Shown here piece by piece: positions 2,825 to 30,682 of a stretch of DNA of 64,000 nucleotides (position 1 is its first letter; the number at the start of each line of letters is the position of its first letter). The stretch comes from Chloroflexota bacterium (GTDB lineage Bacteria; Chloroflexota; Chloroflexia; DAOUBH01). Where the stretch lies: contig DAOUBH010000019.1 in assembly GCA_034432775.1 (NCBI GenBank), positions 9,719-73,718 of the forward strand, given 5' to 3'. The notes under the pieces were generated by a model. That model ran no database searches. It saw nothing but the letters and a program-made list of their open reading frames with translations, and was not told where the DNA came from. The translations under genes were made by a program, and so were the position numbers.

Positions 2825-2866
2825 GTCGTTACCCCCATTCTCCTCACTGAATTATAATGGCGACCT

Positions 2867-3937: not shown

Positions 3938-3938
3938 G

Positions 3939-4724: not shown

Positions 4725-4739
4725 TGCGTCGTACCTCCA

Positions 4740-5600: not shown

Positions 5601-5622
5601 GTGCCCACCTCCGGACAACGGA

Positions 5623-5631
5623 TGCTATAAT
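5623..5631 (+). promoter_or_regulatory. Extended -10 promoter (TGcTATAAT) for the small basic ORF
   Basis: TG at 5623-5624 and TATAAT at 5626-5631, 40 nt upstream of ATG 5672. Confidence 0.65.
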
Positions 5632-5671
5632 ACACCCTTCGGTAGGGGAAAACAAAGTCTGGGAGGGAATT

Positions 5672-5767
5672 ATGAACAAGAGGAAAAAGATGGCCTGGCG
5701 CAAGCATCGCATGAAGGCAAAGAAGACGAAGGAAAAGCGCAAGGCAGGGACGCCGCCCAAAGATTAA
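5672..5767 (+). CDS. 31-aa Lys/Arg-rich small protein MNKRKKMAWRKHRMKAKKTKEKRKAGTPPKD (below the ORF-track cutoff)
   Basis: GGAGG SD 5 nt before the ATG, extended -10 promoter upstream, TAA stop, and it fills the gap between acd and hbd on the opposite strand. Confidence 0.7.
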   Translation: MNKRKKMAWRKHRMKAKKTKEKRKAGTPPKD

Positions 5768-5770
5768 CCC

Positions 5771-6943: not shown

Positions 6944-6953
6944 GGTTCCCTCC

Positions 6954-9062: not shown

Positions 9063-9578
9063 TCAGGATGCCCGTCGGGTCACCACAAAATAGCAGTCCT
9101 CTGCCCCCATAGCCCGGCAACGAGTCTCGAGGGCTTCAACGGATCCACCCAATACTATGGTGCCGACCCCAGCGAAGACCCCTCGCACCATGTGGCACAC
9201 AGGATCCTTTGCAGGTCCGTAACCCTGGGCGAACACGGAGTTGACTAGACGAACCGTGAGCACACCGCCCCGCGGATCGCACTCTTCGATCGACAACTTG
9301 CCCCAGCCTATCTGTGCTCCCATACCAGCCATAAACGTGGCAATCTCACCAGCCGACAGATTAAGTTTGTCCCGATAGGTGGAAGCAGAAAGCTTACCCC
9401 CAGTGAACCCTCCACTGAAGAGGATTTCGGCAGTCCGCTGGTAGCCCAACGCCGACTCCATCTCCTTCTGGAGCTGCGCGACCGTCTCAGGCCGGACCAA
9501 GAAGTACCTTACGCCGCGGTAGGTGAGCTGACCCATTTCAGGGTCAAACTCCATGGTTTCCAGTATTTCGTTCCGCAT
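9063..9578 (-). CDS. V4R (4-vinyl reductase-like) domain protein
   Basis: Start trimmed to MRNEILE. GWG, PVCHMVRG and ETRCRAMGAEDCYF give the V4R Cys pattern. Confidence 0.8.
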   Translation of the reverse strand: MRNEILETMEFDPEMGQLTYRGVRYFLVRPETVAQLQKEMESALGYQRTAEILFSGGFTGGKLSASTYRDKLNLSAGEIATFMAGMGAQIGWGKLSIEECDPRGGVLTVRLVNSVFAQGYGPAKDPVCHMVRGVFAGVGTIVLGGSVEALETRCRAMGAEDCYFVVTRRAS

Positions 9579-9588
9579 CCTAGGCCCT

Positions 9589-11354: not shown

Positions 11355-13418
11355 TCAGGCGAACTTGACTATGAGATTGCCGTAAGGATCAACTACAGCC
11401 GAACTTCCCGGAAGCAAAAGCGTGTTCGACACGCGCTCCTCAATCACTGCTGGGCCATCCACCACATTTCCGGCCCTGAGAAGGTCCCGTTCGTAGATGG
11501 GTGTATCGATCCAACCTAGGCCCTCAAACATTACCTTTCTGTGAGCCTTAAGTGCCCCCCTGGGATCAGTACCCTGGAGCTCCTGTTTCGGGAAGTGGAC
11601 GGCAGGTGTCTTACCGATGACCACCACCCTTAGGTTTACGAACTCTATTTGCTCATCGAGAGAGCTATACGCGTATATCCGCTGGTGGGCATCGTGGAAG
11701 GCCCGCTCCACCTCAGCAATATCGTCTCTGGTGAGCTTGGCTTTCCTTGGTACGGGTACCGTGAGTTCGTAAGACTGCCCTTCGTAGCGGAGATCGGCTA
11801 GCCACTGAACCACTATATCGCTATCGGCGACCCTCTCACTGCGGAGCTGTTCAACACCCCTGGCCTCCAGCTCCTGGTAACTCCTCGAAGCGGCTTCTAG
11901 GTCGAGCTTTTGGGATAGCTCAACCATCGTCTGAACGTAGTCGTACCTTCGGTCGGATACAAGAAGCCCAAGGGCAGAGAGATTGCCGCAGAGGGTCGGC
12001 ACCACAACCGACTTCATGGAAAGGTCCTTGGCCAGCTGAACGGCGTGAAGTGGTCCTGCCCCGCCGAAGGCTACGAGGGCGAATTCTCGCACGTCGTATC
12101 CTTTCTGAATGGAATTTATGCTGATCCCCTTCTCCATGTTGGCATCTACCACTTTGATAATGCCGAGGGCCGCCTCCTCCACCGAGATGCCCATGGGTCG
12201 GGCTATCCTTGTCTCGATAGCCTTGTAGGCCAGGTCATAGTCGAGCTCCATTTCGCCGCCCAGAAAGTAAGCAGGATTGATGCGACCCAATACCACGTTC
12301 GCATCGGTGACCGTAGGTTCTGTACCGCCCCTGCGGTAGCACGCGGGGCCAGGATCGGCAGCTGCACTTTGAGGCCCCACATTGAGCACACCACCGACAT
12401 CCAGCCAGGCTATCGATCCGCCACCAGCACCTATGGCATGGACATCCACTATGGGTATCTTTACTGGGAACCCCTCAAACTTGCTGTCGGAGGTAATGCG
12501 CGGTGACCCATCCACGATGAGACCTATGTCAAAGCTGGTTCCGCCCATGTCCACAGAGATGATGTGGTCTTCTTCGGTGAGCCTGCCGATGTAGGCGGCT
12601 GCCATTGCACCGCCTGCCGGCCCCGAGTTCACCATCCTCACTGCGCTAACTCTGGCCATATCGGCTGTCATTGTTCCGCCGCTGGCCTGCATGATGCGCA
12701 AATCTATCTTGTGGCCATATTTGGCCTGCACTCTGCCCAACAGATTGTCTATGTAGCGGATTGTAAGGGGCTGAAGGTAGGCATTCAGCACTGTGGTAGA
12801 AGTGCGCTCGTATTCCCGAAACTCCGGAGCTAGCTCACTGGAGAGCGAGACCAATGCCTCAGGATAGATAGCCTTGCATATCTCGGCAGCCCTCCGCTCA
12901 TGGGAAGGGTTCAGAAAGGAGAAAAGGAAGCAGATGGCTATGGCTTCGACCCCTTCGGCCTTGAAGAAGCGCACAGCCTCTTCTACCTCACTTTCGTTGA
13001 GGGGCACGATGACTTTACCGTCCCTGTCGACCCTTTCAGTCACGCCTTGCCTGAGGTATCGGGGCACTAACGGCAGGGGATTGTCCACATTGAAGTCGTA
13101 AAGGCCCTCGGGAGGGCGCTGCACCCTACCGATTTCCAACACATCCCTGAAACCACGGGTGGTTATCAACCCGACCTTGGCACCCTTGCGTTCGATCAGC
13201 GCATTGGTGCCAATGGTGGACCCATGGGCCCCAACAATGTAGTCTATCTCTTCGAGCTTGGCCCCCGATATCGACAGTATCTTGTCTATGCCGTTGATCA
13301 CGCCCTGGGCCAGGTCCCTGGGCGTTGTAGACGTTTTCGTGTAGTAGACCTTGCCCCTGGCATCATCCACCAGGACCATGTCAGTGAAGGTACCGCCTAC
13401 GTCTATGCCAATCCGCAT
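11355..13418 (-). CDS. Hydantoinase A / 5-oxoprolinase family ATP-binding subunit
   Basis: GIDVGGTFTD, REYERTSTT, SGPAGG, DMGGTSFD, GAGGGSIA, PTVTDAN, FGGAGPLHA. Confidence 0.92.
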   Translation of the reverse strand: MRIGIDVGGTFTDMVLVDDARGKVYYTKTSTTPRDLAQGVINGIDKILSISGAKLEEIDYIVGAHGSTIGTNALIERKGAKVGLITTRGFRDVLEIGRVQRPPEGLYDFNVDNPLPLVPRYLRQGVTERVDRDGKVIVPLNESEVEEAVRFFKAEGVEAIAICFLFSFLNPSHERRAAEICKAIYPEALVSLSSELAPEFREYERTSTTVLNAYLQPLTIRYIDNLLGRVQAKYGHKIDLRIMQASGGTMTADMARVSAVRMVNSGPAGGAMAAAYIGRLTEEDHIISVDMGGTSFDIGLIVDGSPRITSDSKFEGFPVKIPIVDVHAIGAGGGSIAWLDVGGVLNVGPQSAAADPGPACYRRGGTEPTVTDANVVLGRINPAYFLGGEMELDYDLAYKAIETRIARPMGISVEEAALGIIKVVDANMEKGISINSIQKGYDVREFALVAFGGAGPLHAVQLAKDLSMKSVVVPTLCGNLSALGLLVSDRRYDYVQTMVELSQKLDLEAASRSYQELEARGVEQLRSERVADSDIVVQWLADLRYEGQSYELTVPVPRKAKLTRDDIAEVERAFHDAHQRIYAYSSLDEQIEFVNLRVVVIGKTPAVHFPKQELQGTDPRGALKAHRKVMFEGLGWIDTPIYERDLLRAGNVVDGPAVIEERVSNTLLLPGSSAVVDPYGNLIVKFA

Positions 13419-15585: not shown

Positions 15586-16467
15586 TCATCTACTTGCTGG
15601 GCTCAAAACCTCGCCTATGAGACGCGCCACATCCTTGGGGGTCACTGCTACCCCTATGCCGCACCGCTCAAAGGCCTCTATCTTCGACCGGTATGAGCCC
15701 ATGCCGCGGGTTATGATGGCCCCAGCATGCCCCATCTGTTTTCCCTCTGGAGCTGTCCTGCCGGCGATTATGCCCACTACTGGCTTGGTCACATGGGATG
15801 CCACGTATTCAGCAGCTTCCTCTTCTGCCACACGACCTATTTCCCCAATGATGACTATAGCCTTGGTCTGCTGATCCGCTTCGAACCTCTCCAAGATGTC
15901 CACGAAGGAAACACCTGTTACTGGATCGCCTCCAATGCCAACACAGGTGGACTGGCCGAAACCGGCCTTGGTGAGGGTATCTGCTACCAGGTACGAAAAC
16001 GTACCACTTCGGGAGACGATACCTACAGGACCAGGTCTATAAATGTGGCCCGGCATGAAGCCGATGACGCACTCTCCAGGAGTTATGATGCCAGGAGAAT
16101 TAGGGCCTATCATGACAGCTCCGGTTTCGCGCACCTTGAAGGCCATCATCATGGCGTCCCGCACAGGCACTCCCTCGACCACACAAGCTATGAAGCCGAT
16201 CCCAGCGTCGAGGGCTTCGAAGACGGCATCCAAGGTGTAGGGGGCTGGCACAAAGGTGATAGTCGCATCGGCATGATGATCAGCCAACGCATCCTTCACA
16301 GAATCGTAAATAGGGACCCCATGTACCTCGCTGCCACCCTTGCCAGGGGTAACTCCGGCTACGATGCGCGTCCCGTACTGCATCATGAGGCCGGTATGAT
16401 ACTCGCCGAACCTTCCCGTCATGCCTTGAGCTATCACTCGAGTGTTACGGTCGACGAGTATGCTCAC
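15586..16467 (-). CDS. sucD: Succinyl-CoA synthetase alpha subunit
   Basis: GTG start overlapping the sucC stop; QGMTG, GPNSPG, SRSGT, GIGGDP, MGHAGA (phospho-His). Confidence 0.9.
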   Translation of the reverse strand: MSILVDRNTRVIAQGMTGRFGEYHTGLMMQYGTRIVAGVTPGKGGSEVHGVPIYDSVKDALADHHADATITFVPAPYTLDAVFEALDAGIGFIACVVEGVPVRDAMMMAFKVRETGAVMIGPNSPGIITPGECVIGFMPGHIYRPGPVGIVSRSGTFSYLVADTLTKAGFGQSTCVGIGGDPVTGVSFVDILERFEADQQTKAIVIIGEIGRVAEEEAAEYVASHVTKPVVGIIAGRTAPEGKQMGHAGAIITRGMGSYRSKIEAFERCGIGVAVTPKDVARLIGEVLSPASR

Positions 16468-17603
16468 TCCGTACTCCTCGCCAGCTTCACGACCCGGTCC
16501 ACAGCTGCATAGAAGTCGGGGACGAAGAACAGGTTGGGCCGGCTCGCCTGCTCCATTATCGCCCGGGCCTCGTCGGAATTCCTGCCCTGGAGGCACACCA
16601 CTACAGGCATAGTGAGGTGCGGCAATCTGTCCATGGCATCGACTATCCTCTCAGCAATCACATCGCAACGCACCCCGCCCCCAAAGACGTTGATGAATAT
16701 AGCCTTCACCCTGGGATTGTCTGCCACGATGGTCAAGCCGTCATAGATACCACCAGCCAATATGCGGTCACCTTCGTCCAGGAAATTGGCTGGCCTGCCT
16801 CCGGCCAACTGGATCATGTCCATAGTGGCCATGGTAAGCCCAGCGCCGTTGCTTATGATCCCGATGTCGCCATCCAGTTCAACGTAGCTGAGGCGTGCCT
16901 TGGCCGCTCTCTCTTCTACATCTGAAGTAAAATTGCGTTCCACTTCCGGATGTCTGAAGAGGGCGTTGCCATCCACATTCAGTCTGGCGTCAGCCGCCAA
17001 GAGACGCCCATCGCTAGTCACCACCAAAGGATTTATTTCAGCCAGTTCAGCGTCCATCTCCCAATAGATTCGGTATAGGGAATGGACGATAGGTTCCGCA
17101 GCCTCCCGGAGTCCCGGCGGCAGCCGTTTCAACAGTCCCCGGACTTGGTACCCGAGGAGCCCGTACCTTGGATCGACACGGACCTGTTCCAGGTTTGAGG
17201 GGCTCTCGGCGGCCACCGCCTCTATCTCCACGCCGCCCTCACTGCTGAACATTACCAGCGGAGATGCCGGGATCCGTCGTGCATCGGTAACAACGCCCAG
17301 GTACAGTTCCTGTGCCACGTCAAGCCACTCTTCTACCAGTAGCTTTCGAACTTGCTCGCCCCGAACCTCGCCACCCAGCAAGGCGGCAGCGGCCTCCAGT
17401 GCTTGCTCCAAGCCTTCTACAAGCCGTATACCCCCGGCCTTGCCGCGACCACCCACCAACACTTGGGCCTTAATGGCGACCCTGGGACCTAGCTCAGCCA
17501 GAGCCCCTTCTACCTCAAGAAGAGATTGGCAAACTATGCCTCTAGCCACCGGGATGCCGAACTGAGCAAATATGGCTTTGGCCTGATACTCGTACAGCTT
17601 CAA
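16464..17603 (-). CDS. sucC: Succinyl-CoA synthetase beta subunit
   Basis: TTG start; LYEYQAK, KAQVLVGGRGKAGGI, EINPL, NGAGLTMATMD, PANFLD, NVFGG. Confidence 0.9.
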   Translation of the reverse strand: MKLYEYQAKAIFAQFGIPVARGIVCQSLLEVEGALAELGPRVAIKAQVLVGGRGKAGGIRLVEGLEQALEAAAALLGGEVRGEQVRKLLVEEWLDVAQELYLGVVTDARRIPASPLVMFSSEGGVEIEAVAAESPSNLEQVRVDPRYGLLGYQVRGLLKRLPPGLREAAEPIVHSLYRIYWEMDAELAEINPLVVTSDGRLLAADARLNVDGNALFRHPEVERNFTSDVEERAAKARLSYVELDGDIGIISNGAGLTMATMDMIQLAGGRPANFLDEGDRILAGGIYDGLTIVADNPRVKAIFINVFGGGVRCDVIAERIVDAMDRLPHLTMPVVVCLQGRNSDEARAIMEQASRPNLFFVPDFYAAVDRVVKLARSTE

Positions 17604-18703
17604 GGCCGCCTCATCACCCCCCGACCTGAAACTTGGAATTGCTCGATGACGCTTACAAGTCTGTCGTTCTCCTCAGGAAGCCCGATAGTGACGCGGAACC
17701 AGCCATCATCGGAGAAGGCCCTCACTATTACTCCGTGGCTCAGAAAATACTCTTGAACGGGCGACGTATCCGCTCCTAACCGTACATAGATGAAGTTCCC
17801 CTGAGTTGGCAGAAACTCCAAGCCAAGCCGCCGATACTCGCAGTAGAGCCTATCCCTTTCGCGGGAGTTGAGCATGGCTCGTTCCTTCACGATATCTTGA
17901 TGCCGCAAGCTCTCAACCGCAGCCCTCTGAGCCAGATCGTTCACTGTGAAGGGCCCCTGGGTCTTCCTAACTTCGGCGATCAGCTGGCTGTTGCCAACGG
18001 CATAGCCTATCCTAAGGCCAGCCAGACCGTATATCTTCGAAAAAGTGCGCAACACCAGAACGTTGGGAAGTTGCACAGCAGAAGGCAGCAACTGCGGGAA
18101 GTCAGGTGCATCGGCGTATTCGTAATAAGCTTCGTCCACTATCACCAGCACATCCTCAGGGATTGCCTCTATAAACCTCTTGAGCTCCCTGTGGCTCACG
18201 TAGGTCCCAGTAGGGTTGTTGGGATTGCAGACTATAACGAGGCGGGTTGCATCATCTACCCGGGCTGCCATGGCCTCTAGGTCGTGCCGCCCTTCCCTCA
18301 GGGGCACTGGTACGGGAACTGAACCAAGTATGCGACAATATATAGAGTAGAGCAGGAACGAAGGATGGGCAAATACTACCTTATCGCCAACACTCACGGC
18401 TGCCATAAAGGCCGCCAGCAGCACTTCGCCGGAACCATTCCCTACTATGACGTTGTCCGGACCCACCCCCAGGTGGGCAGCCAGAGCCCTCCGTACTTCC
18501 CAGCAATCGTTGTCTGGATAACGGTTTAACTCAGCAGCCCATTGGGGAAGCAGCTCCAACACGGGACCGAAGGGCGGCAGCGGAGACTCATTAGAGGCCA
18601 GCTTTACCACTCGATCCAGCCCATAGCGGCGCCGGACCTCCTCGATCCGCAGACCTGGGACATAAGGCGGTATTGCTACCAATTGGGGGCGAAGCTTTAC
18701 CAT
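17600..18703 (-). CDS. hisC: Histidinol-phosphate aminotransferase
   Basis: KLASNE, NRYPD, NPNNPTG, DEAY, RTFSKIYGLAGLRIGY. Confidence 0.9.
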   Translation of the reverse strand: MVKLRPQLVAIPPYVPGLRIEEVRRRYGLDRVVKLASNESPLPPFGPVLELLPQWAAELNRYPDNDCWEVRRALAAHLGVGPDNVIVGNGSGEVLLAAFMAAVSVGDKVVFAHPSFLLYSIYCRILGSVPVPVPLREGRHDLEAMAARVDDATRLVIVCNPNNPTGTYVSHRELKRFIEAIPEDVLVIVDEAYYEYADAPDFPQLLPSAVQLPNVLVLRTFSKIYGLAGLRIGYAVGNSQLIAEVRKTQGPFTVNDLAQRAAVESLRHQDIVKERAMLNSRERDRLYCEYRRLGLEFLPTQGNFIYVRLGADTSPVQEYFLSHGVIVRAFSDDGWFRVTIGLPEENDRLVSVIEQFQVSGRGVMRRP

Positions 18704-18757: not shown

Positions 18758-20131
18758 TCAGGCCTGCACCCGCGGCACCTGTTCGAGAGCCTTGTGCACC
18801 AGCTCCTCTGGGTACTCGTAATCGGCCAGTTGCCCGGCCAGATACTCTTCGTAGGCCTTCAGGTCGAAATGCCCGTGCCCGCTCAAGTTGAATAGAATGG
18901 TCTTGGCCTCTCCAGCCTCCTTGGCCAGCAGGGCCTGTTCTATGGCCACCAGCACTGCGTGGGCCGATTCGGGTGCGGGAATGATGCCCTCGGCTCGAGC
19001 GAAATTCACCGCAGCCTCAAAGACAGCTGTTTGGGGTACAGCCTTCGCACTGATGATGCCGTGGTAGGCAAGAGCACTCACGATGGGGGCCATGCCGTGG
19101 TAGCGGAGGCCGCCAGCATGAATGGCCGGAGGTATGAAACTGGAACCCAGGGTGTGCATTCGCAGCAAAGGTGTCATCTGGGCGGTGTCCCCAAAATCGA
19201 AAGTGTAAACGCCCTTGGTAACACTGGGGCAAGCCAGGGGCTCCACGGCGATCACCTCTAGTTTCTGGCCCCGGGTCAGCTTATCCATGATGAAGGGGAA
19301 GGTCAGCCCGGCGAAGTTCGAACCGCCCCCTATGCATCCAATTACCACATCGGGGTAATACCCTGCCTTTTCCATCTGCTTCTTGGCCTCAAGCCCCAAT
19401 ATGGTCTGGTGCATGAGAACGTGGTTGAGAACACTACCCAAGGAGTAATGGGTATCCTCCCTTGTCGCCGCGTCCTCAATGGCCTCCGATATGGCAATAC
19501 CCAGGCTCCCTGGATTGTCGGGATCTTTCTCCAACACTGAACGGCCGTAATTGGTGTCAGGGCTGGGGCTCGGCACAACCTTAGCGCCGAAGGTCTCCAT
19601 GATGATCCTTCGGTACGGCTTCTGGAAGTAGCTCACCTTTACCATGTAGACCTTGCACTCCAAGCCAAAGAAGTTGCAGGCCATGGAGAGGGCGCTGCCC
19701 CACTGTCCAGCCCCGGTCTCCGTAGTCAACCGCTTGATTCCCTCTGCTTTGTTGTAGTAAGCCTGGGCCACAGCGGTGTTAGGTTTGTGGCTGCCTACAG
19801 GGCTAACCCCCTCGTACTTGTAGAAGATCCTGGCAGGCGTGTCCAGAGCCCGTTCCAGCCTCCGAGCCCTGAAGAGCGGTGTCGGCCTCCAAAGGCGGTA
19901 CACATCCATCACGGGTTCGGGTATGTCGATCCACTTGTCCCGGCTGACTTCCTGCTTGATCAGCTCCATGGGGAAGAGCGGCGCCAAATCCTGGGGGCCA
20001 ATAGGTTGCCCTGTACCCGGATGGATAACCGGGGGCAGTTCAAAGGGTAGATCAGCTACGATGTTGTACCACTGCTTCGGTATCTCGTTCTCCTCAAGCA
20101 AGTACTTGTACGTCTCCATGTCCGCCTCCAA
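18758..20131 (-). CDS. trpB2: Tryptophan synthase beta chain type 2 (TrpB2, TrpB-like PLP enzyme)
   Basis: [40 protein letters not shown], plus the long N-terminal extension typical of TrpB2. Confidence 0.93.
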
Positions 20132-20255: not shown

Positions 20256-20687
20256 CTACCGGCGAAGGTTAACACGCTCCTCTCCAAAGTGTTCCTTTAG
20301 CCACCTGAGGCCATCCTCAAAGGTACTGCCCGTAGGGAACACCTCGGCCACACCCATCTCTTTGAGCTTAGGAACGTCTTCCAAAGGTATGGTGCCGCCC
20401 ACCAAAACCACCTTGTCGCCTATGCCCTCCTCCCTCATCCTCTGAAGGATGCGCCTCGTGTAGCCTAAGTGGGCCCCCGAAAGTATGTTGAGGACCACCA
20501 CGTCGACGTCCTCTTGCAGGGCTGCGTTGACTATCTGATCCACGGTCTGGTGGAGCCCTGTATAGATGGCCTCCATGCCATGGTCCTTAAAGTACTTGAC
20601 CAGCAGCTTAGCGCTTACATCGTGGCCGTCCAAACCCGGCTTGGCGACCAGTATCCTGAGGGGACGTCTCTCGACCATGCCCATCAC
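20256..20687 (-). CDS. Cobalamin-binding small subunit of an acyl-CoA mutase
   Basis: KPGLDGHD (DxHxxG-type base-off/His-on motif), YTGLHQT, GGTIP. Confidence 0.92.
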   Translation of the reverse strand: MMGMVERRPLRILVAKPGLDGHDVSAKLLVKYFKDHGMEAIYTGLHQTVDQIVNAALQEDVDVVVLNILSGAHLGYTRRILQRMREEGIGDKVVLVGGTIPLEDVPKLKEMGVAEVFPTGSTFEDGLRWLKEHFGEERVNLRR

Positions 20688-22355
20688 CTAAAATATGTTC
20701 ATAGGCTCTCGAAACTCGCCGAAGACATCCCGAAGCACAGCCGTCATCTCGCCGACTGTGCAGTAAGCCTTCACAGCCTCCAAGGTGGCGGGCATTATGT
20801 TCTCGCCGCTCTCGGCAGCCCTCCGCAGCTCCCGAAGGGCTCGGTCTACAGCAGCCTGGCTGCGCATCTCTTTGACCTTACGCAGGGACTCCAATTGTTC
20901 CTCGATGACCCGCTCATCCCGCTTCATGAGCTTCATGGGAGGCTGCTCGTTTTCCTTAACGAAGATGTTCTCCCCCACCACCAGCTGCTCCTTGGTCTCG
21001 TAAATTGCCTTGTACCGCTTGTAACTTTCCTCTAGCACGATCCGCTGTACGTAGCCGTCCTCTATGGATTTGATGATGCCGCCCCGGTCCCAGATGTGCT
21101 GCATGAACTTCTCGATCTCTTCCTGCATGCGGTTGGTCAAGCTCTCGACGAAGTAGGAACCGGCCAAGGGATCTACGGTGTTGGCTACCCCCGACTCGTA
21201 AGCTATGATCTGTTGAGTCCGCAGGGCAATTTCTTGGGCCTCGGGTGTAGGTATAGCGTAGGCCTCGTCCTTAGTGTTGACGGTGAGGGCCTGCACTCCC
21301 CCCAGCACAGTGGCCAAGGCCTCGATGGTGCCCCGGATAATGTTGTTGTCGGGTTGGTGGTAGGTGAAGGTCCCGCCTGGGGTCCCAGCGAACCATCGCC
21401 ACATCCAGGAGGTGGGTTTCTTGGCACCATAGCGGTATCGGATGAGCTTTGCCCAGATACGCCTAGCAGCTCGGAACTTCGCTACCTCTTCGAAAAGATC
21501 CATGTAAGAGGCCATATTGAATGTAACCCTGTGGACGAAGGAATCGATGTCCAACCCTCTGGACAAAGCATTCTCGATGTAGGCACAGGCATTCAGGAAA
21601 CAGAGCCCTACCTCCTGGACGGCATTGGCCCCACTCTCCCTGATATGGTAGCCACAGACACTCACAGGATTGAAGCGAGGCATGTACTTGGAGCAGAACT
21701 CGAACATGTCGCCGATGAGGCGCATGGAATGCTCGAGAGGAAATATCCAGGCACCACGGCCAATGTACTCCTTCAAGATATCGTTCTGTACGGTGCCGGC
21801 TACCCTCTCCATGGGAACACCTTGCTTCTCAGCAACAGCCACGTACATGGCCGTGATGATGGGAGTAATAGCGTTAATGGTGAAGCTAGTGCTCAGTCGA
21901 TCCAGAGGCAGCCCATCGAAGAGGATCTCGAAGTCCAGCAGGCTATCGATGGCCACACCTACGGTGCCCACCTCGTCCTGAAATTCCTCATGGTCGGAGT
22001 CGTAGCCCATCTGAGTGGGTAGATCAAAGGCGCATGACAATCCGGTCTGGCCCTCTTCCAGGAGCCACTTCCAAAGCTGATTGGTGTAGCGAGGTGTGCC
22101 AAAGCCGGAGTACTGGCGCATGGTCCACAGCTTCTTGCGGTACATAGTGGGGTATATGCCTCGGGTGAAGGGGTACTCGCCCGGAAGCCCCATATCCCGC
22201 ATGTAATCCATGCCCTCTACATCTTTGGGTGTGTAGAGAGGTTTGATCTCGATGCCCGATGACGTGTAGACCTTGGGCAGTTCACCGATTTGGTTCTCTT
22301 TCTCCCACCGCTCCAGCTCCTCGTCTAGTGGTCCCACTCCTACCTCGATAGCCAT
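20688..22355 (-). CDS. B12-dependent acyl-CoA mutase large subunit (methylmalonyl-CoA mutase family, divergent barrel residues)
   Basis: PGEYPFTRG, WTMRQYSGF, FDLPTQ, QNDILKE, GYHIRE, ALRTQQI. The usual RFHTQTAG reads RWFAGTPG. Confidence 0.9.
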   Translation of the reverse strand: MAIEVGVGPLDEELERWEKENQIGELPKVYTSSGIEIKPLYTPKDVEGMDYMRDMGLPGEYPFTRGIYPTMYRKKLWTMRQYSGFGTPRYTNQLWKWLLEEGQTGLSCAFDLPTQMGYDSDHEEFQDEVGTVGVAIDSLLDFEILFDGLPLDRLSTSFTINAITPIITAMYVAVAEKQGVPMERVAGTVQNDILKEYIGRGAWIFPLEHSMRLIGDMFEFCSKYMPRFNPVSVCGYHIRESGANAVQEVGLCFLNACAYIENALSRGLDIDSFVHRVTFNMASYMDLFEEVAKFRAARRIWAKLIRYRYGAKKPTSWMWRWFAGTPGGTFTYHQPDNNIIRGTIEALATVLGGVQALTVNTKDEAYAIPTPEAQEIALRTQQIIAYESGVANTVDPLAGSYFVESLTNRMQEEIEKFMQHIWDRGGIIKSIEDGYVQRIVLEESYKRYKAIYETKEQLVVGENIFVKENEQPPMKLMKRDERVIEEQLESLRKVKEMRSQAAVDRALRELRRAAESGENIMPATLEAVKAYCTVGEMTAVLRDVFGEFREPMNIF

Positions 22356-22366
22356 TTGACACCTCC

Positions 22367-23158
22367 CTATAAGTCAGCCCTGAGTGAACCTTCTGGATCG
22401 ACACGAAGCCTGAGCACTTCCAATTCCTCTGCAGTAGGCTCTGGCATGGGATCTATATGATCAGGGACTACCAGCTCAAACCCCGTGTTCTTGACGACGG
22501 TATCAACGTCGACGCCCGGAAAGAGGTGCTTTATGCGCATAGCTTTACTTTCCTCTTCGAAGTCGAAGATGCCCAAGGGTGTCAGCACGTACTCGGGCCC
22601 TCCTCCGGGCAGACCGAGCTTCATGCGCGCATCGGCTCCGCCCGCACCCCAGCCTACAGCAGAAACGTAGTCACACCGCTGCACAAAGACCCTGGGCGAG
22701 TGGCTGTTTGTGTAAATGAAGAACCGTTTGACCATGGACATAACTGTGGATGTACCCACACTGCCTGGACCCCGGAACTTAAGTCGCCGCGGATCGGAAC
22801 CTACGCCGATGAGGTTGCAGTTGCCGAAGCGATCTATCTGTATCCCACCTGCAAAGCACAGGTCCATACGCCTGATGGCGTTGGTGAGCAACTCAAGGGG
22901 CATTATGGCCTCAGCCCACTTCGCCATACGTGGGTCAACGATATGGGCAAGACTCCCCACTTTCTGGACATGGGCCAGATTGGTGAAGTAGGAGAGCACG
23001 TTCAACCTCAGATCCGGAGCGTGGGTAAGATGGGCTAGAAAGACCCCCGCAGTAGGCACCGGAAGGTTCGTACCCACCGAAACATAATCCCCGTTCTTTA
23101 TCTGCCTCGCAATAAATATGGCTATCAGCTCCTTGGCCGATACTTGAGCATGCCCCAT
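22367..23158 (-). CDS. Class I CoA-transferase-like beta subunit (GctB/IpdB/AibB fold) lacking the catalytic Glu
   Basis: VGTNLP, QIDRFGNCN, GSVG, LTPLGIFDF, NTGFEL, VDP. APDLRLNVLS sits where GctB has APDCHIIVES. Confidence 0.85.
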   Translation of the reverse strand: MGHAQVSAKELIAIFIARQIKNGDYVSVGTNLPVPTAGVFLAHLTHAPDLRLNVLSYFTNLAHVQKVGSLAHIVDPRMAKWAEAIMPLELLTNAIRRMDLCFAGGIQIDRFGNCNLIGVGSDPRRLKFRGPGSVGTSTVMSMVKRFFIYTNSHSPRVFVQRCDYVSAVGWGAGGADARMKLGLPGGGPEYVLTPLGIFDFEEESKAMRIKHLFPGVDVDTVVKNTGFELVVPDHIDPMPEPTAEELEVLRLRVDPEGSLRADL

Positions 23159-23160
23159 TC

Positions 23161-24057
23161 CTATTCCACCGTCAGCGCTATGATGCGGTCCATGCCGACC
23201 CGTTCCAGATACTCCCCATGGCTGCGAGGCCCCAAAATGTAGGTCTCCAGGTACTCTCGGAAGGGACCATCGTCGCCCTCCAGAGCCGCCTTTGCCACAG
23301 CCACATATCGGCGCAGATGCTCCTCATCCAACTTGTAGAACCCCTCGAAGGAGAGCGGATGGGCACCGAAGGGAGCAAGCACCACCATGTCTACGAACTC
23401 GCAAGGAACCGTTGTCTCTGTAGGGGCGCGGCGTATTACCTCGTTGGGAACTATGCGCTCAACTTCCACAACCACCTTGTCGGCAGCCTGGGCCAGAAGG
23501 ATATCAGCAAATTGGGCCCCCAAGTGCTGCACATTCCCGTAGATATCGGCCTGCGCCGCATGGAGAAAGACCACATCCAGATGGATCGGAGGTGCCGCTA
23601 CAAGGGGCGGCCCTCCGAAGGGGTCCTCCACCCACTTAAGGCGAGGATTCAAATCGGGGATCGAAGTGCCCACTGGTCCCCGAACAGGCAGGAAGGGCAG
23701 TTCCTGGATCTTGGCCTTCAGTTGGGCAAGGACAAGCCCTAGGTCTACCTCCAGAACTTCGATGGCGCCTTCGGAAGCACGCCTACCGAAGAAGGGTCCT
23801 ATGGGCGCCACGGACTCCAGACCAACATAGGGGGTAGAAACGGTCTTGACGACCCCCAACCCTATCAGAAGGTCGACATCGTAGCTGGAAGGCGGCGCAA
23901 AGACGGTCAGATCCTTTACACCGCGCCTGGCCAGAGCGCGCAGCAATGCCATGGGCTTCGCCGCGGTGATGAAGCCGCCTATCCCTATGGTGTCTCCGTC
24001 CCTTACAAGGCTTACGGCTTCCTCGAAAGTAGCGACAACCGGCGTCCTTTCAGCTAT
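23161..24057 (-). CDS. Class I CoA-transferase-like alpha subunit (GctA fold); probable ATA start
   Basis: TFEEAVSLVRDGDTIGIGGF...KPMALLRAL lies in frame upstream of the first ATG (23952). LPFLPVRG, HAAQADIYGN and PFGAHP are present. GGAGG sits 6 nt before ATA at 24057. Confidence 0.85.
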   Translation of the reverse strand: MAERTPVVATFEEAVSLVRDGDTIGIGGFITAAKPMALLRALARRGVKDLTVFAPPSSYDVDLLIGLGVVKTVSTPYVGLESVAPIGPFFGRRASEGAIEVLEVDLGLVLAQLKAKIQELPFLPVRGPVGTSIPDLNPRLKWVEDPFGGPPLVAAPPIHLDVVFLHAAQADIYGNVQHLGAQFADILLAQAADKVVVEVERIVPNEVIRRAPTETTVPCEFVDMVVLAPFGAHPLSFEGFYKLDEEHLRRYVAVAKAALEGDDGPFREYLETYILGPRSHGEYLERVGMDRIIALTVE

Positions 24058-24068: not shown

Positions 24069-24938
24069 CTACGAACCCTTTGTGTAATCGTAGAAGCCTC
24101 TCCGGGTCTTCCTCCCCAGCCTGCCAGAACGAACCATCTGAGTAAGAAGGTAACTCGGCCTGTATTTGGGATCACCGAATTCTTGCATCATGTAGGTCAT
24201 GTTTTCCCAAACGATGCCCACGCCGTTGGTGTAGTCGGCAAGCTCCAACGGACCCATGGGATGCCCGAGGCCCAGTTTGATGGCCTTGTCGATATCCTCG
24301 GCACTTGCTATGCCCTCGGCCAGCATGCAAGCAGCCTCGTTTATGATCACCGATACCATGCGGCTGGTTATAAAACCCGGCGTGTCTTTTATGACCACCG
24401 TCTCCTTGCCCAGCCGTGCGGACAACGCCTTGATGGTCTCTACTGTGTCTTCGTCGGTCTGAGCACCCCGCACGATCTCAACTAGCCGCATTACGGCTAC
24501 AGGGTTGAAGAAGTGCATCCCGATAACCTTGTGGGGACGGCGGGTGGCCGAAGAAATGTCAGTTATGCTCAGGGCCGACGTGTTGCTAGCCAAAATGGTG
24601 TCTGGACGGGTCAGCCGATCTAGGTCGGCGAAGAGAACTTTCTTCAAATCCATTTTCTCAGGTATGGACTCTATCACGAGATCCACATCGCCCACAGCCT
24701 CTTCTAGGGACAGGTAACCACGGAGTCGCCCCATGACCTGGACCGCCTCCTCGGCAGTCATCTTGCCCTTCTCCACGAAAAACTTGCTGAGGTTGTCGGA
24801 TATCCCCTTCAAAGCCCTGTCCAGCAGCACCTGATCGACATCCCTCAGGCTGACCGTAAGGCCTGCCATAGCCATGACTTGGGCGATCTGGCTGCCCATA
24901 ACGCCGGCGCCGACTACGGCAACTCTATTGACTTGCAT
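24069..24938 (-). CDS. 3-hydroxyacyl-CoA dehydrogenase (second paralog)
   Basis: GAGVMGSQIA, ESIPE, SNTS, GMHFFNP, HPMGP, GRKTRRGFY. Confidence 0.95.
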   Translation of the reverse strand: MQVNRVAVVGAGVMGSQIAQVMAMAGLTVSLRDVDQVLLDRALKGISDNLSKFFVEKGKMTAEEAVQVMGRLRGYLSLEEAVGDVDLVIESIPEKMDLKKVLFADLDRLTRPDTILASNTSALSITDISSATRRPHKVIGMHFFNPVAVMRLVEIVRGAQTDEDTVETIKALSARLGKETVVIKDTPGFITSRMVSVIINEAACMLAEGIASAEDIDKAIKLGLGHPMGPLELADYTNGVGIVWENMTYMMQEFGDPKYRPSYLLTQMVRSGRLGRKTRRGFYDYTKGS

Positions 24939-25587
24939 GCTTTACCTCCGGAAGGGTTTCGTGACTGAGGAGAGATCGCAGTACCATGGCCTGACATGTG
25001 GCATAGAGGTCGTCCAAGGCAACTAGGTGGCTCCGTGCCTTCCCAGACTCCGCCATCAGGATTACACCTGTCCACATACCCCAAATGGTATTGGTGACTC
25101 TCCAGCTATCGTCGAGGCGAAAGAGTCCCTGCTGCGCACCGTCCCTCAGAATGCCATCCAGGATGCCGAGACAGATGTTGGCCTTTCCGACAATTACTTC
25201 GTAGAGATGCCGCGGAACCCTTACCAGCTGGCTTCCTTGATGGATGAGAAACATGACATCGAAGTAGGCCCTGTGGTCCTTATAGAAGGTGAGGTACGCT
25301 TCCCCCAGGGCTAGCAGCCGCTCCGTGGGAGAACCCTTCATGCTCCCTACTGGACCCCAATATTGATCGTAGAGGACGTCCAAACCCTCCGCCAATACCC
25401 AGCCATACAGCTCCTCTTTGCTTTGAAAGTGCAGGTATATGGCACCCTTGCTGATGTCTGCTTGGTCAGCTATGTCCTCCATAGTAGCAGCCATAAAGCC
25501 CCTCGAGAAGAAAACATCCCTCGCGGCTGCTAGGATGTCCGCCCGCCGTGCCTGCCGCTCCTTAAGCCTGCGGTCGCCCCCGGCCAA
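24925..25587 (-). CDS. TetR/AcrR family transcriptional regulator
   Basis: TTG start; HTH ATMEDIADQADISKGAIYLHFQSKEEL. Confidence 0.92.
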   Translation of the reverse strand: MAGGDRRLKERQARRADILAAARDVFFSRGFMAATMEDIADQADISKGAIYLHFQSKEELYGWVLAEGLDVLYDQYWGPVGSMKGSPTERLLALGEAYLTFYKDHRAYFDVMFLIHQGSQLVRVPRHLYEVIVGKANICLGILDGILRDGAQQGLFRLDDSWRVTNTIWGMWTGVILMAESGKARSHLVALDDLYATCQAMVLRSLLSHETLPEVKHASQ

Positions 25588-26997: not shown

Positions 26998-29820
26998 CTA
27001 CCCAGCCACCTTGCCCAACATGGCAGCCTTAACCTTCTGAGGTTTAGCCGGGATTGCCGTCAGCCTCACACCGATGGCATCATAGATCGCGTTGCAGATC
27101 GCTGCGGCCATGGGTATAAGACCCGCCTCCGATACACCTTTTGCGCCGAAGGGACCAAGGGGATCCTCGTCTTCGATGAGGATCACCCGAAAATCCGGGC
27201 ACTGCTCGATGGTAGGCACCCGCACCTTACCAAAGGTATCGGTCAATACGTAACCACCCTCGACTTTAAACTCCTCTGTCAGGGCGTAACCCATTCCCTG
27301 GAGGGCTGCCCCGATGATCTGACCCTCTACCCCTCTCGGGTTAATCGCCTTTCCTACGTCGTGGACCGATATCACCTTTACCACACGAACCTTGCCAGTG
27401 GCCTCGTCCACTTCAACAATAGCCACTTGAGTGGCGTACGTATAGTTGAAGTGGTAGAAGGAATGTGCCGGGTCGGCATTGGGTATTCCCTTGTCGGCCA
27501 AAGCGGGATCCGGCAAGTGATCCGTCTTCGGCGCTATAAAGACGTACTGCGACTTAAGTTCCTTCCCCTCGGTGACCGTCAATTTGGCCAGCATGTCCAG
27601 GCTCAACAGCCTGTCGCCCTGTCTGGTACGGAACTCACCGTCGGTGTAGACTATATGCTCGTAGGGTATGCCCATTCGTTCGGCCACTTCGATCTTGGCC
27701 TGCCGCTCGATGTCGTCAAGGCAACCCAGAACTGCCTTACCGACGAGCATGGTCATTCTCGAGGCGCAAGTCGACCCAGCGCTGGGAGTATTGCAAGTAT
27801 CCGGCGGCATTACTGCTACGCGATCCAAGGGCACCCCGAACCGCTGACTGGCCATTATGGCCAAGACCGTCTCATGTCCCTGCCCGATCTCGGCGCCTCC
27901 CGTCCGGATCAACAAGCGTCCGTCCTCGGTCATCTCCACGGCAGCGCCCACGGCTTCAGGCACCGCAACTCCCATGCCAGAGTTCTTGAAGCAGGAGGCC
28001 ACTCCTACGCCATACCGTCGGCCAGGCGCTGGAGAGGGCAGCTTTCTGAGTTCTTCTTCTAGGGCTTCTTTCGCAGCCCTGAGGGTTTCGGTCAGCCTTA
28101 CAACTCCAGCTGTACCAACGAGAGGCTGACCCACGGCCGTGACATCCCCAGGCCTCAGAGCATTGAGCTCCCTCACAGTGAAGGGATCCATCCCAAGCAC
28201 TCTGGCCAAAGCGTCCATCTGCTGCTCTACGGCAAAGTGAGCCTGGGGAACGCCGAAGCCCCGAAAGGCGCCTGCCACAGGGTTGTTAGTATAGACGCCT
28301 ATGGCCTCGACCCTAAAGTTGGGCACCCTGTAGGGCCCCCCTCCGAAGATGGTCACCGCTTCGACCACTGCCGATCCCGTGGAAGCGTAGGCCCCCGAGT
28401 CTAGCAGCACCTTAACCTCCATGGCCACGAGAGTCCCATCTCGCTTGGCTCCCAACCTATGATAGATGCGGGTGGGATGCCGCTTTGGATGGTTCTTCAG
28501 CGATTCGTACCGGGAAAACACTAACTTGCAGGGCCGGCCGGTCTTCAGCACACCCAGGGCAAGCATGTTCTGGACAGATATGTCGCACTTGCTGCCGAAG
28601 GATCCCCCTGTAGGCATGTGCACGATCCTGACCTTCTCCACAGGGAGACCTAGTACCTGGGCAACCTGCCTGGCCTCTTCATGGGGATTCTGATCCCCTA
28701 CGTAAATGGTAACGCCTCCGTCTTCGTTGGGCTCGGCCACCCCGGACTCTACTTCGAGGTAAGCGTGTTCCTGCCAAGGGGTGGAATAAAAGCCTTCTAC
28801 GATCACGTCACAATCAGCCCAGGCAGCGTCCGGGTCGCCTTTGAGCACATGACTTCTGAAGAGGATGTTGGTTCCCTGTGGTCCAACAATTGGCGCGTCG
28901 GCCTCCAATGCTCTCTCGGGGGTATCCACCACTTCGAGGGGCCGATAGGTCACCTTAATGCGCTTGACCGCCTCTTCGGCTATCTCGGGTGTCTCGGCAT
29001 ACACTACGGCCACCGGGTCTCCTACATACCTGACCTTGTCGTCGCATAGGGCCGGTTGGTCGTCCACAATCTGGCCATAGCGGTTCTTTCCGGGCACATC
29101 CTTATATGTCAGGACCGCAGCTACCCCAGGCGTGGCTTCGGCCTCGCTCGTGTCGACGTCGAGGATCTCTGCGTGGGGATACTCGGCCCACAGGACTTTG
29201 CCATGAAGGACTCCAGCAGGATAAAGGTCAGCAGAGAACTGCAACCTCCCGGTGACGGTTTCTAAAACCCTCAGCCTGCGGGGGCTGTGTGCAAGTACCG
29301 GATCTTCGATGGGAGGAGGGACTTCGCCCCGGATCCTGGCAGCAGCTATCTGGGTTGCCCTCTGAACCGCAGCGATGATCCTAGGATATTCTCCACACCT
29401 ACAAATGTTGCCTTTGAGCGCCCTTTTTATATCCTGCGGAGTGGGCGATGGGTTCTTTCCCAGGAGGGCAGCCGCAGAAATTATCAGACCAGGCGTACAG
29501 AAGCCGCATTGGAGGGCACCATGCTCTACAAAGGCTTCCTGCACAGGGTGCAACATTCCACCCTCGGCAAGGCCCTCGATGGTAACAACCTCTTTACCTT
29601 GTAGCCTCCCCAGTTTCAGCAGACAGGCCTTTTCCGCTTCTCCATTGACCAGCACCATACAGGTCCCGCAACTTCCTTCCGAACATCCATCCTTAGTTCC
29701 CGTAAGGTGCAGGTGATCCCTCAGGTACGACAACAGGGTCATTTGGGCTGGACCTTCGACCGTGACCTCACGGCCATTGATCGTAAAGGTGACCTGGGTT
29801 GTCTCTGACACCCGCTGCAT
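26998..29820 (-). CDS. Xanthine dehydrogenase/aldehyde oxidoreductase family Mo-hydroxylase, 2x[2Fe-2S] domain fused to the Mo-binding subunit
   Basis: GCSEGSCGTC, QCGFCTPG, CRCG, GGSFGSK, AFRGFG, GAEIGQG, ASR, GAKGVSEAG; start at MQRVSE after a GGAGAGGTGA SD. Confidence 0.9.
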   Translation of the reverse strand: MQRVSETTQVTFTINGREVTVEGPAQMTLLSYLRDHLHLTGTKDGCSEGSCGTCMVLVNGEAEKACLLKLGRLQGKEVVTIEGLAEGGMLHPVQEAFVEHGALQCGFCTPGLIISAAALLGKNPSPTPQDIKRALKGNICRCGEYPRIIAAVQRATQIAAARIRGEVPPPIEDPVLAHSPRRLRVLETVTGRLQFSADLYPAGVLHGKVLWAEYPHAEILDVDTSEAEATPGVAAVLTYKDVPGKNRYGQIVDDQPALCDDKVRYVGDPVAVVYAETPEIAEEAVKRIKVTYRPLEVVDTPERALEADAPIVGPQGTNILFRSHVLKGDPDAAWADCDVIVEGFYSTPWQEHAYLEVESGVAEPNEDGGVTIYVGDQNPHEEARQVAQVLGLPVEKVRIVHMPTGGSFGSKCDISVQNMLALGVLKTGRPCKLVFSRYESLKNHPKRHPTRIYHRLGAKRDGTLVAMEVKVLLDSGAYASTGSAVVEAVTIFGGGPYRVPNFRVEAIGVYTNNPVAGAFRGFGVPQAHFAVEQQMDALARVLGMDPFTVRELNALRPGDVTAVGQPLVGTAGVVRLTETLRAAKEALEEELRKLPSPAPGRRYGVGVASCFKNSGMGVAVPEAVGAAVEMTEDGRLLIRTGGAEIGQGHETVLAIMASQRFGVPLDRVAVMPPDTCNTPSAGSTCASRMTMLVGKAVLGCLDDIERQAKIEVAERMGIPYEHIVYTDGEFRTRQGDRLLSLDMLAKLTVTEGKELKSQYVFIAPKTDHLPDPALADKGIPNADPAHSFYHFNYTYATQVAIVEVDEATGKVRVVKVISVHDVGKAINPRGVEGQIIGAALQGMGYALTEEFKVEGGYVLTDTFGKVRVPTIEQCPDFRVILIEDEDPLGPFGAKGVSEAGLIPMAAAICNAIYDAIGVRLTAIPAKPQKVKAAMLGKVAG

Positions 29821-29860
29821 CGGGAAAATCACCTCTCCTTGCATTGACGATAAGAACTCA

Positions 29861-30682
29861 TTACTGGTGCTCCCACTGTTCCCCCAAAGCCCTGACAATG
29901 TCACCCCGGGTCACAATGCCCACCAGTTTGCCTTCGTGGACCACTGGGAGGCGACGAATGCGGTTAGCCACCATGAGCCTCCCGGCTTCCACAGCTGGTA
30001 CCTCGGGCGACGTAGTGATGACGTGGGTAGTCATAATGTGTCCCACCGTGTCCCTATCTTCGTCGGCGTGAGTCAAGACGTCATGCTCCGTAGCAATACC
30101 GAGAATTTTCCCGCTCTCGTCCACAACAGGGACACCGCTGATACCATACTTGTTGAGGAGCACAGCCAACTGTCCCACACTGCAGTCGGGTCCTACCGTG
30201 ATGACTGGGCTGTTCATTATGTCCGCAACCTTTATCTGGAGAATGCTGAGCTCAGTTCTGACTTGAGGATAGGCCTTGGTGATAACCTGATCCCCCCACT
30301 TCATAGGGGCTTCGGCTTCTTGCGGGCGCCCGACAGCCAGATCGTCCTTGATCTCATCGACCGTTACCTCCACAACAGCGGCAGGGAAGGGCGAACTCTC
30401 CATCTCTTCCTTGACAATACGCGCCCTGCCCCGTATGCTGATGGCCATACCCCTGCCCATGGCTACAAGCCTGACCTTGCCCGACCGACGAATGTTCCGC
30501 AGACTGGCTATATCGCGATGGATGGCCATAGACAGCGTTCGCCTATCCTTCACTTTGATCCACGACATGGGAGCAGTATGGGGCCAACCATCCTCATCCA
30601 CGGTAGCCAAAATGAGCGTTGGAACATGCTCCAGGTTCTGCATGATCTTGTCTGTCAGCTCTCCACCTATCACCTTCCCCAT
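29861..30682 (-). CDS. Pyridoxamine-5'-phosphate-oxidase-like FMN-binding split barrel fused to a CBS pair
   Basis: N-terminus LILATVDEDGWPHTAPMSW...SLRNIRRSGKV; C-terminus VADIMNSPVITV...ISGVPVVD...IRRLPVV...LVGIVTRGD. Confidence 0.75.
   Translation of the reverse strand: MGKVIGGELTDKIMQNLEHVPTLILATVDEDGWPHTAPMSWIKVKDRRTLSMAIHRDIASLRNIRRSGKVRLVAMGRGMAISIRGRARIVKEEMESSPFPAAVVEVTVDEIKDDLAVGRPQEAEAPMKWGDQVITKAYPQVRTELSILQIKVADIMNSPVITVGPDCSVGQLAVLLNKYGISGVPVVDESGKILGIATEHDVLTHADEDRDTVGHIMTTHVITTSPEVPAVEAGRLMVANRIRRLPVVHEGKLVGIVTRGDIVRALGEQWEHQ

Follow-up and report, generated by a model that had tools for sequence, protein, structure and literature searches.

Which acyl-CoA ester is rearranged by a cobalamin-dependent mutase that has kept the carboxylate-binding pair of methylmalonyl-CoA mutase (MCM) and has lost four otherwise invariant residues of its barrel strands? 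This question is raised by an open reading frame (ORF) at positions 20688-22355, minus strand, of the window, i.e., the whole stretch of 64,000 nucleotides of a Chloroflexota bacterium contig (DAOUBH010000019.1) analysed here. To our knowledge, only few specificities of acyl-CoA mutases are known: MCM, isobutyryl-CoA mutase (ICM/IcmF), ethylmalonyl-CoA mutase (ECM), 2-hydroxyisobutyryl-/3-hydroxybutyryl-CoA mutases (HCM/RCM) and PCM. The ORF encodes an intact mutase with the catalytic set kept, its replacements are clade-wide, a canonical MCM is encoded separately in the genome, and the gene neighbourhoods of the clade are conserved and resemble the indoleacetate (iaa) operon. We regard it as probable that the large subunit and its 143-aa partner form an adenosylcobalamin (AdoCbl)-dependent arylsuccinyl-CoA mutase of an iaa-like pathway, interconverting (2-aminophenyl)succinyl-CoA and (2-aminobenzyl)malonyl-CoA.

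Kept and replaced residues of the mutase

The ORF is open throughout its 555 codons and is preceded by a GGGAGGTG ribosome-binding site; its stop codon directly abuts the start of the gene for the B12-binding small subunit (20256-20687). The match to TIGR00641 (PF01642 family) scored 652.6 bits at a cut-off of 303.8. An AlphaFold2 (AF2) model of the 555-aa subunit presented an eight-stranded barrel (pLDDT 84.7, pTM 0.87), superposing on HCM 4r3u with a TM score of 0.88 and on MCM 2xiq with 0.87.

Equivalent positions are given in the numbering of the P. shermanii MCM, anchored by the Y89F chain 5REQ, in which the change relative to 1REQ falls on the residue paired with Tyr82 of the window mutase; the other equivalences were counted along the 1REQ chain, and Tyr243/His244 were taken from a MAFFT column alignment. 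A preliminary description of the locus had quoted the motifs MRQY, QND and KEYIGRG as signs of a carboxylated substrate. All of them were present, and the alignment identified the residues concerned as Tyr82, Gln190 and Arg200 (Table 1). Asn360 and Glu364, the equivalents of Asn366 and Glu370, are likewise kept. Phe and Gln, which mark ICM at the Tyr89 and Arg207 positions, are Tyr and Arg in the window mutase. Cys234, in the position of a canonical Ser, is common to the window mutase and the Iaa-type mutases.

The remodelling of three strands, also claimed in that description, was borne out by HMMER alignments to solved structures: RWFAGTPG was paired with RFHCQTAA of HCM, RAHCQTSG of human MCM and RTHSQTSG of the MCMs of M. 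tuberculosis and P. shermanii, ALTVNT with SLHTN[SGA], and VTFNM with LSFFW or LAFFV. In the AF2 model these motifs lie on the strands 277-282 (VTFNM), 321-324 (RWFAGTPG) and 356-359 (ALTVNT). His328 and Gln330, said there to be missing, are indeed Phe322 and Gly324 in the anchored numbering. Phe287, His328, Gln330 and His364 are invariant in the solved MCM and HCM structures, in 25 canonical sequences and in ICM-type sequences, thus their loss is unusual in the whole family and not only among MCMs. The literature searched gave nothing useful on the structural roles of these four residues. Judged from strand periodicity and the model, Asn280, Phe322, Gly324 and Thr358 would face the barrel interior, where the changes could make room for an aryl ring. 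The loop 360-369 behind strand beta8, which carries the equivalents of Asn366 and Glu370, was the sole internal segment with a pLDDT below 50; it may become ordered only on binding of cofactor or substrate.

In the small subunit, residues 20-25 read DGHDVS, i.e., DxHxxS instead of DxHxxG, with the Asp-x-His present in the alignment. DGHD[RQ]G is found in all five comparators, i.e., the MCM partner of the same genome, the partner of the Aromatoleum Iaa mutase and those of three clade relatives. The loss of the Gly is unusual and might affect base-off/His-on binding or the cobamide preference.

The FAGT clade and the mutase of the iaa operon

The spread of the FAGT motif, which the preliminary description had suggested to count, was determined by a homolog search of a collection of 5.8 billion proteins, with a comparison of the best 120 homologs. 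The replacements, with F-[AG]-G-T at positions 322-325, were shared by 103 of these 120. Signature columns, defined as fixed (at least 90 %) in the FAGT clade and fixed with another residue in 25 canonical MCMs, were found at eleven positions: 158, 175, 202, 234, 280, 320, 322, 324, 358, 359 and 368. Since the replacements are fixed in 103 of the best 120 homologs and absent from the 25 canonical MCMs, they are not the result of chance drift. Nor do they occur in the MCMs of human, M. tuberculosis and P. shermanii, all of them characterised enzymes. The clade is large and unrecognised, and its members are labelled methylmalonyl-CoA mutase in databases. Within it the window protein is an outlier, with three metagenome relatives at 95-96 % identity and the next ones at 64-57 %.

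In Aromatoleum aromaticum, the iaa operon is described as encoding the CoA ligase IaaB, the hydantoinase-like IaaCE with a proposed ATP-driven ring opening of 2-oxoindoleacetate, the phenylsuccinyl-CoA transferase IaaL and IaaGH, the B12-dependent phenylsuccinyl-CoA/benzylmalonyl-CoA mutase (PMC8360864, PMC8453981). IaaF is a decarboxylating benzylmalonyl-CoA dehydrogenase of a subclass that has GGG where YEG is usual (PMC8360864). The locus of Aromatoleum buckelii U120, located via the published iaaF primer 22-mer, served as reference. The primer had matches in 29 genomes, as the N-terminus MDFDLTD is frequent among acyl-CoA dehydrogenases (ACAD) in high-GC DNA; only the A. buckelii match was used, and A. 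aromaticum EbN1 was not among the matched genomes. The gene order in A. buckelii is ligase, HyuA (708 aa), HyuB, IaaF, B12 subunit, mutase (537 aa), FAD and Mo hydroxylase subunits, CoA_transf_3 and binding protein.

The best match of the window mutase in the A. buckelii genome was the mutase of the iaa operon, with 47 % identity and 543 bits (412 bits for the MCM of that genome), and the two were reciprocal best hits. The best match of the window HyuA was IaaC, with 530 versus 318 bits. Judged by this A. buckelii ortholog, IaaGH resembles the window mutase in the split into large and small subunits, in the Tyr/Arg/His/Tyr set, in the loss of Phe287, His328, Gln330 and His364, and in the Asn at position 287. 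Genes for a HyuAB-type lactam hydrolase, a CoA ligase/transferase, a Mo hydroxylase and beta-oxidation are clustered with both. The three strands of the Aromatoleum-type mutases read RSYNF, RMIAAGGGG and QTMALCS. Of the eleven signature columns, seven agree in kind: Cys234, Asn280 and Ile368, together with hydrophobic residues at 322 and 359 and small ones at 324 and 358. The FAGT mutases differ by a pocket of Phe/Gly/Thr/Asn versus Ile/Ala/Ala/Cys and by the lack of the oligo-Gly run, and they form a clade of their own. In a FastTree phylogeny this clade (support 0.998) was sister to the Iaa clade with a support of 0.78. IQ-TREE (LG+G4, 1000 ultrafast bootstraps (UFBoot) and SH-aLRT) supported the FAGT and the Iaa clade with 100/100 and 99/100, respectively, and placed both inside one non-canonical radiation (96/84), apart from the canonical MCMs.

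Further variation was seen among representatives of clusters at 50 % identity: dozens keep the Tyr/Arg pair and vary at the positions 287, 328, 330 and 364, with barrel motifs such as RFGTSTLG, RVFAGGNG and RTGASSGG. From these sequences, many clades of acyl-CoA mutases that act on carboxylate substrates seem to be still uncharacterised.

Gene neighbourhoods and the genomic background

The conserved neighbours of the clade match the gene set of the anaerobic iaa pathway. Eight other contexts of clade members were fetched, of which seven had enough flank (contig L045 ends at the mutase). HyuA and HyuB were present in the mutase cluster in all seven (L005/6, L009, L007/8, L046, L047, L048), and the gene for the B12 subunit always accompanied the clade mutase. 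Frequent companions were CoA_trans pairs or CoA_transf_3, V4R, ACAD, a PaaK-like ligase and a Mo hydroxylase; PaaK-like ligase and three-subunit Mo hydroxylase occurred together in the Desulfosporosinus-type and Clostridia contigs (L005, L009). The Dormibacteraeota operons have the order large subunit, ACAD, CoA_transf_3, HyuA, HyuB and B12 subunit. The ACAD beside the mutase (L007:9640-10812, the one member tested) carries LLSGGGTSEL and thus the GGG diagnostic for IaaF. L048 is nearly a gene-for-gene copy of the window, with Hbd, two CoA_trans genes, large and small mutase subunit, SucC, SucD, HyuA, HyuB, V4R and ADP-forming acyl-CoA synthetase; it also encodes an indolepyruvate:ferredoxin oxidoreductase, with IorA (TIGR03336, 789 bits at a cut-off of 651) and IorB. 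A full beta-oxidation set is additionally present in L046. There, V4R follows HyuA and HyuB is displaced: the two Hyu genes (4217-6268 and 11870-12754) are split by V4R and a block of ACAD, MaoC, SDR, ChsH2-like OB protein and thiolase genes, which suggests that the whole set is one functional unit.

In the window, the minus strand carries a TetR-family regulator, a 3-hydroxyacyl-CoA dehydrogenase, two CoA_trans-fold genes and the large and small mutase subunits. After a gap of 124 bp follow TrpB2, HisC, the SucC/SucD-like pair, a class-V aminotransferase and a 2-hydroxyacid dehydrogenase, then HyuA, HyuB, V4R, ADP-forming acyl-CoA synthetase, ACAD, Hbd and enoyl-CoA hydratase, and last an isopropylmalate/tartrate-dehydrogenase-like gene and a thiolase (Table 1). 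Among the annotated window neighbours of the mutase was no epimerase, MeaB or CCR.

Table 1. Genes of the mutase cluster and sequence motifs of the mutase, in window positions
Feature	Position	Strand	Basis or remark
Acyl-CoA mutase large (substrate-barrel) subunit, FAGT clade	20688..22355	-	555 aa; TIGR00641 and AF2 TIM barrel
TMRQYSGFG, beta1; Tyr82 = Tyr89 (carboxylate ligand), kept	22098..22124	-	alignment
QNDILKEYIGRG; Gln190 = Gln197 and Arg200 = Arg207, both kept	21753..21788	-	alignment
CGYHIRESG; Tyr236/His237 = Tyr243/His244, kept; Cys234 for canonical Ser	21630..21656	-	alignment
RVTFNM, beta6; Asn280 in place of invariant Phe287	21513..21530	-	alignment, AF2
RWFAGTPG, beta7; Phe322 for His328, Gly324 for Gln330	21375..21398	-	alignment, AF2
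ALTVNT, beta8; Thr358 for His364, Val359 for Thr365	21273..21290	-	alignment, AF2
B12-binding small subunit	20256..20687	-	143 aa; TIGR00640, 121.7 bits
Fused [2Fe-2S]/Mo-hydroxylase, other side of the mutase operon	26998..29904	-	
TetR-family regulator, head of the operon	24925..25587	-	domain match
3-Hydroxyacyl-CoA dehydrogenase, first enzyme gene of the operon	24069..24938	-	domain match; same position in L048
Two CoA_trans-fold genes, directly upstream of the mutase	22367..23158, 23161..23952	-	PF01144
TrpB2 and HisC-type aminotransferase, between mutase operon and SucCD/HyuAB	18758..20131, 17600..18703	-	
SucC/SucD-like ADP-forming CoA ligase pair	15586..17603	-	second copy in the genome
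HyuA, ATP-dependent lactamase/carboxylase family	11355..13418	-	best Aromatoleum match IaaC
HyuB, ATP-dependent lactamase/carboxylase family	9589..11337	-	domain match
V4R-domain protein, conserved after HyuB	9063..9689	-	domain match
ADP-forming acyl-CoA synthetase	6954..9059	-	
Acyl-CoA dehydrogenase (ACAD)	5771..6943	-	
3-Hydroxyacyl-CoA dehydrogenase (Hbd)	4740..5618	-	
Enoyl-CoA hydratase	3939..4724	-	
Isopropylmalate/tartrate-dehydrogenase-like gene	2867..3973	-	
Thiolase	1640..2824	-	

The CoA_trans pair precedes the mutase likewise in four relatives (L009, L045, L046, L048). The window and its Firmicute-like relatives differ from the iaa operon in having this pair and a SucCD-like ligase where Aromatoleum has IaaL and IaaF. 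The other SucC of the genome, on contig C31, is 42 % identical to the window SucC, and the SucC/SucD pair of the distant relative L048 (L048:11087-13106), which lies between mutase and HyuAB, is 46 % identical to the window pair. For the window pair, an arylsuccinate-CoA ligase is the candidate function, not the housekeeping succinyl-CoA synthetase. TrpB2 and HisC may be a link to tryptophan or indole metabolism if the pathway handles indoles, or may be unrelated biosynthetic genes. For the removal of the malonyl carboxyl group the mutase clade presents three candidate partners: the GGG-type ACAD of Dormibacteraeota, the CoA_trans-fold pair of the window (22367-23952) and of the same four relatives, and a Carboxyl_trans protein of the Desulfosporosinus-type contig (L005:5093-6652).

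The genome, a 2.40-Mb assembly of 90 % completeness, contains four genes for mutase large subunits (PF01642). One paralog (L001) is canonical: its strands read FFF, RFHTQTAG and SLHTNS, and on its flanks are the genes for a glyoxalase-fold epimerase, a B12 subunit, MeaB and BCCP/biotin carboxylase. The mutase at 20688-22355 is an extra paralog and not the methylmalonyl-CoA mutase of the cell. The paralog L002 is of the ICM type, with Phe/Gln at the Tyr89/Arg207 positions, and L003 is a divergent Tyr/Arg form adjoining a thiolase (G000:C8:74646-76190; L003:1474-3165, minus strand). L003 keeps Tyr, Arg, Tyr and His, reads VIWVFF, RFLSFSAG and QTHHASS in the same three strands, and groups with other uncharacterised representatives, P0170, P0186 and P0228; it probably represents another mutase specificity not yet described. 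Contig C26 (L044:4165-9809) carries a BcrC/B/A/D-like four-gene set followed by a BadI/Oah-like crotonase/hydrolase and preceded by a glutaryl-/cyclohexanecarboxyl-CoA-dehydrogenase-like ACAD. By its gene content this set resembles a dearomatising module of the class-I benzoyl-CoA reductase (BCR) type.

Proposed reaction and competing explanations

What the substrate is, what the replaced residues do and how the steps follow each other is inferred here; the order was taken from the pathway published for Aromatoleum and is carried over to the window enzyme. Indoleacetate or its CoA ester would be hydroxylated to the 2-oxo (oxindole) form, and the ATP-dependent HyuAB would open the lactam of 2-oxindole-3-acetate, yielding (2-aminophenyl)succinate either free or as CoA ester. 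CoA would be loaded by a ligase or transferase on the carboxyl group adjoining the aryl-bearing carbon; only that isomer would rearrange to (2-aminobenzyl)malonyl-CoA. The mutase would then shift the thioester group to the neighbouring carbon: the 5'-deoxyadenosyl radical would take a hydrogen from the CH2 group adjoining the free carboxylate, and after the migration of the thioester the benzylic radical would regain a hydrogen. As in MCM, the free carboxylate would be gripped by Arg200 and Tyr82, and the thioester carbonyl by His237. The aryl ring would sit on the carbon equivalent to the methyl group of methylmalonyl-CoA and would find its place in a barrel interior remodelled by Asn280, Phe322, Gly324 and Thr358 on the strands beta6-8. 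Decarboxylation and beta-oxidation of (2-aminobenzyl)malonyl-CoA would yield 2-aminobenzoyl-CoA and acetyl-CoA. In the version of the window, the SucCD-like pair may form the CoA ester and the CoA_trans-fold pair may stand in for IaaL and/or IaaF. Breakdown of the side chain would be completed by the ACAD, hydratase, Hbd and thiolase encoded downstream; the beta-oxidation set at 1640-9059 could shorten an arylpropionyl-CoA. The aryl-CoA product could be taken by the BcrCBAD-like set and the BadI/Oah-like hydrolase on contig C26.

The expectation of a larger or different dicarboxylic acyl-CoA substrate, voiced in the preliminary description, is supported by the kept Tyr/Arg and His/Tyr residues, the separate canonical MCM and the iaa-like neighbours. 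Phenylsuccinyl-/benzylmalonyl-CoA are probably better candidates than ethylmalonyl-, glutaryl- and methylsuccinyl-CoA, the substrates named in that description beside methylmalonyl-CoA. Several observations weigh against the assignment to an iaa-like pathway. The mutual placement of the FAGT and Iaa clades reached only UFBoot values of 41-47 in IQ-TREE, so orthology is not established by phylogeny: a claim of orthology was dropped, as the sister relation appeared in FastTree and not in IQ-TREE, and functional equivalence is argued from context and shared replacements instead. In the reverse search the window gene was first by a thin margin (541 bits versus 500, 493 and 487). Neither an assay of IaaGH or any FAGT-clade enzyme nor a structure of IaaGH was found in the literature searched, and the function of the reference is itself only a proposal. 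The DxHxxS of the small subunit is atypical. HyuAB lie 7-11 kb downstream of the mutase on the same strand, with the TrpB2, HisC, aminotransferase and dehydrogenase genes intervening, and within the window there is no IaaL and no IaaF-type ACAD, the window ACAD having the motif FEG. All BCR-like subunits scored below the NCBIfam equivalog cut-offs. The window Mo hydroxylase shares only 34 % identity with the Mo subunit of the Aromatoleum iaa enzyme; it is a possible counterpart, but was not adopted as the iaa hydroxylase, the similarity being at the family level only.

A mutase for another substituted succinyl- or malonyl-CoA, alkyl-substituted or derived from a ring-opened lactam, could be coupled to HyuAB without any connection to indoleacetate; we consider this unlikely. 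The Tyr/Arg pair and the coupling to HyuAB require merely a dicarboxylate from an ATP-dependent lactamase/carboxylase, the Dormibacteraeota operons have neither Mo hydroxylase nor ligase, the pocket reads F/G/T/N versus I/A/A/C in the Aromatoleum type, and mutases for large alkylmalonyl-CoA esters have already been proposed (PMC5719088). However, an aryl or indole substrate is indicated by the IaaF-type GGG ACAD in the Dormibacteraeota operons, by IorAB in L048, by the PaaK-like ligase with Mo hydroxylase in L005 and L009, and by the BCR-like ring reduction of the host. ECM and the proposed hexylmalonyl-CoA mutases ActD/MatB (PMC5719088), likened here by description only, follow the same concept of a substituent on the 'methyl' carbon; they act in acetate assimilation or antibiotic biosynthesis together with CCR and epimerase, whereas the window clade occurs with HyuAB. 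For the FAGT clade as a whole, an undescribed B12-dependent rearrangement of a substituted succinyl-CoA other than (2-aminophenyl)succinyl-CoA, formed by ring opening or carboxylation through HyuAB, is also rather improbable. If true, the clade would stand for a new specificity among the acyl-CoA mutases, with a wide distribution in Dormibacteraeota, Firmicutes and Chloroflexota-like bacteria. Two other sources of analogy were rejected. HyuAB as an acetone/ketone carboxylase disagrees with the best matches of the subunits, which are caprolactamase-type lactamases (665 and 350 bits) and less so acetophenone carboxylase, and acetoacetyl-CoA lacks the free carboxylate that the Tyr/Arg pair would bind. 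In nicotinate fermentation, which also combines a Mo hydroxylase with a B12 mutase, the latter is not an acyl-CoA mutase.

The arylsuccinyl-CoA mutase that we favour has further to be set against the known acyl-CoA mutases. An ordinary MCM isoenzyme, trading succinyl-CoA with the reactions of the neighbouring CoA-transferase and SucCD, would explain why all known carboxylate- and thioester-binding residues are kept and why the cluster contains a succinyl-CoA synthetase-like pair. The MCMs of P. shermanii (1REQ), human (2XIJ) and M. tuberculosis (6OXC) share with the window mutase the fold (TM 0.87), about 40 % identity, these binding residues and the Asn366/Glu370 loop. They differ in the eleven clade-fixed columns, including the four residues invariant in all solved mutases and in ICM, and the window enzyme has its large and small subunits on separate polypeptides; the canonical MCM of the genome has its epimerase, MeaB and carboxylase genes elsewhere, and this cluster lacks epimerase and MeaB. 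The isoenzyme is therefore very unlikely. Still less is to be expected from an HCM/RCM-type mutase feeding the adjacent 3-hydroxyacyl-CoA dehydrogenase: HcmAB (4R3U) is the best match in sequence (474 bits) and fold (TM 0.88) among the solved structures, has the same split architecture, and an Hbd is encoded in the operon, but Ile90, Asp117 and the Gln at the Arg207 position of HCM are Tyr, Ala and Arg in the window mutase, and HCM itself keeps the canonical His328, Gln330 and His364. A catalytically dead or purely structural homolog would agree with the loss of otherwise invariant barrel residues, the DxHxxS of the partner and the low model confidence in the loop 360-369. It is highly improbable in view of the kept residues Tyr82, Gln190, Arg200, Tyr236, His237, Asn360 and Glu364, the conservation of the clade across phyla and the constant presence of the B12 subunit gene.

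As a mutase for an aryl-substituted substrate, IaaGH has reportedly been proposed since 2012, for Aromatoleum aromaticum and Azoarcus evansii, by Ebenau-Jehle in 2012 and Schuhle in 2016. The present analysis adds a sequence signature for a large second clade in the same place of iaa-like clusters: besides the unchanged Tyr89 and Arg207, it consists of Asn at Phe287, a hydrophobic residue at His328, Gly or Ala at Gln330 and a small residue at His364. The signature tells the clade apart from the true MCMs with which it is now lumped in public annotation. The four positions are those whose mutation should convert the pocket size, which would be useful in the engineering of mutases for bulky substituents. 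The distribution of the clade suggests that catabolism of the auxin/oxindole-acetate type extends far beyond the denitrifying Proteobacteria to the abundant Dormibacteraeota of soil and to anaerobic Firmicute- and Chloroflexota-like lineages.

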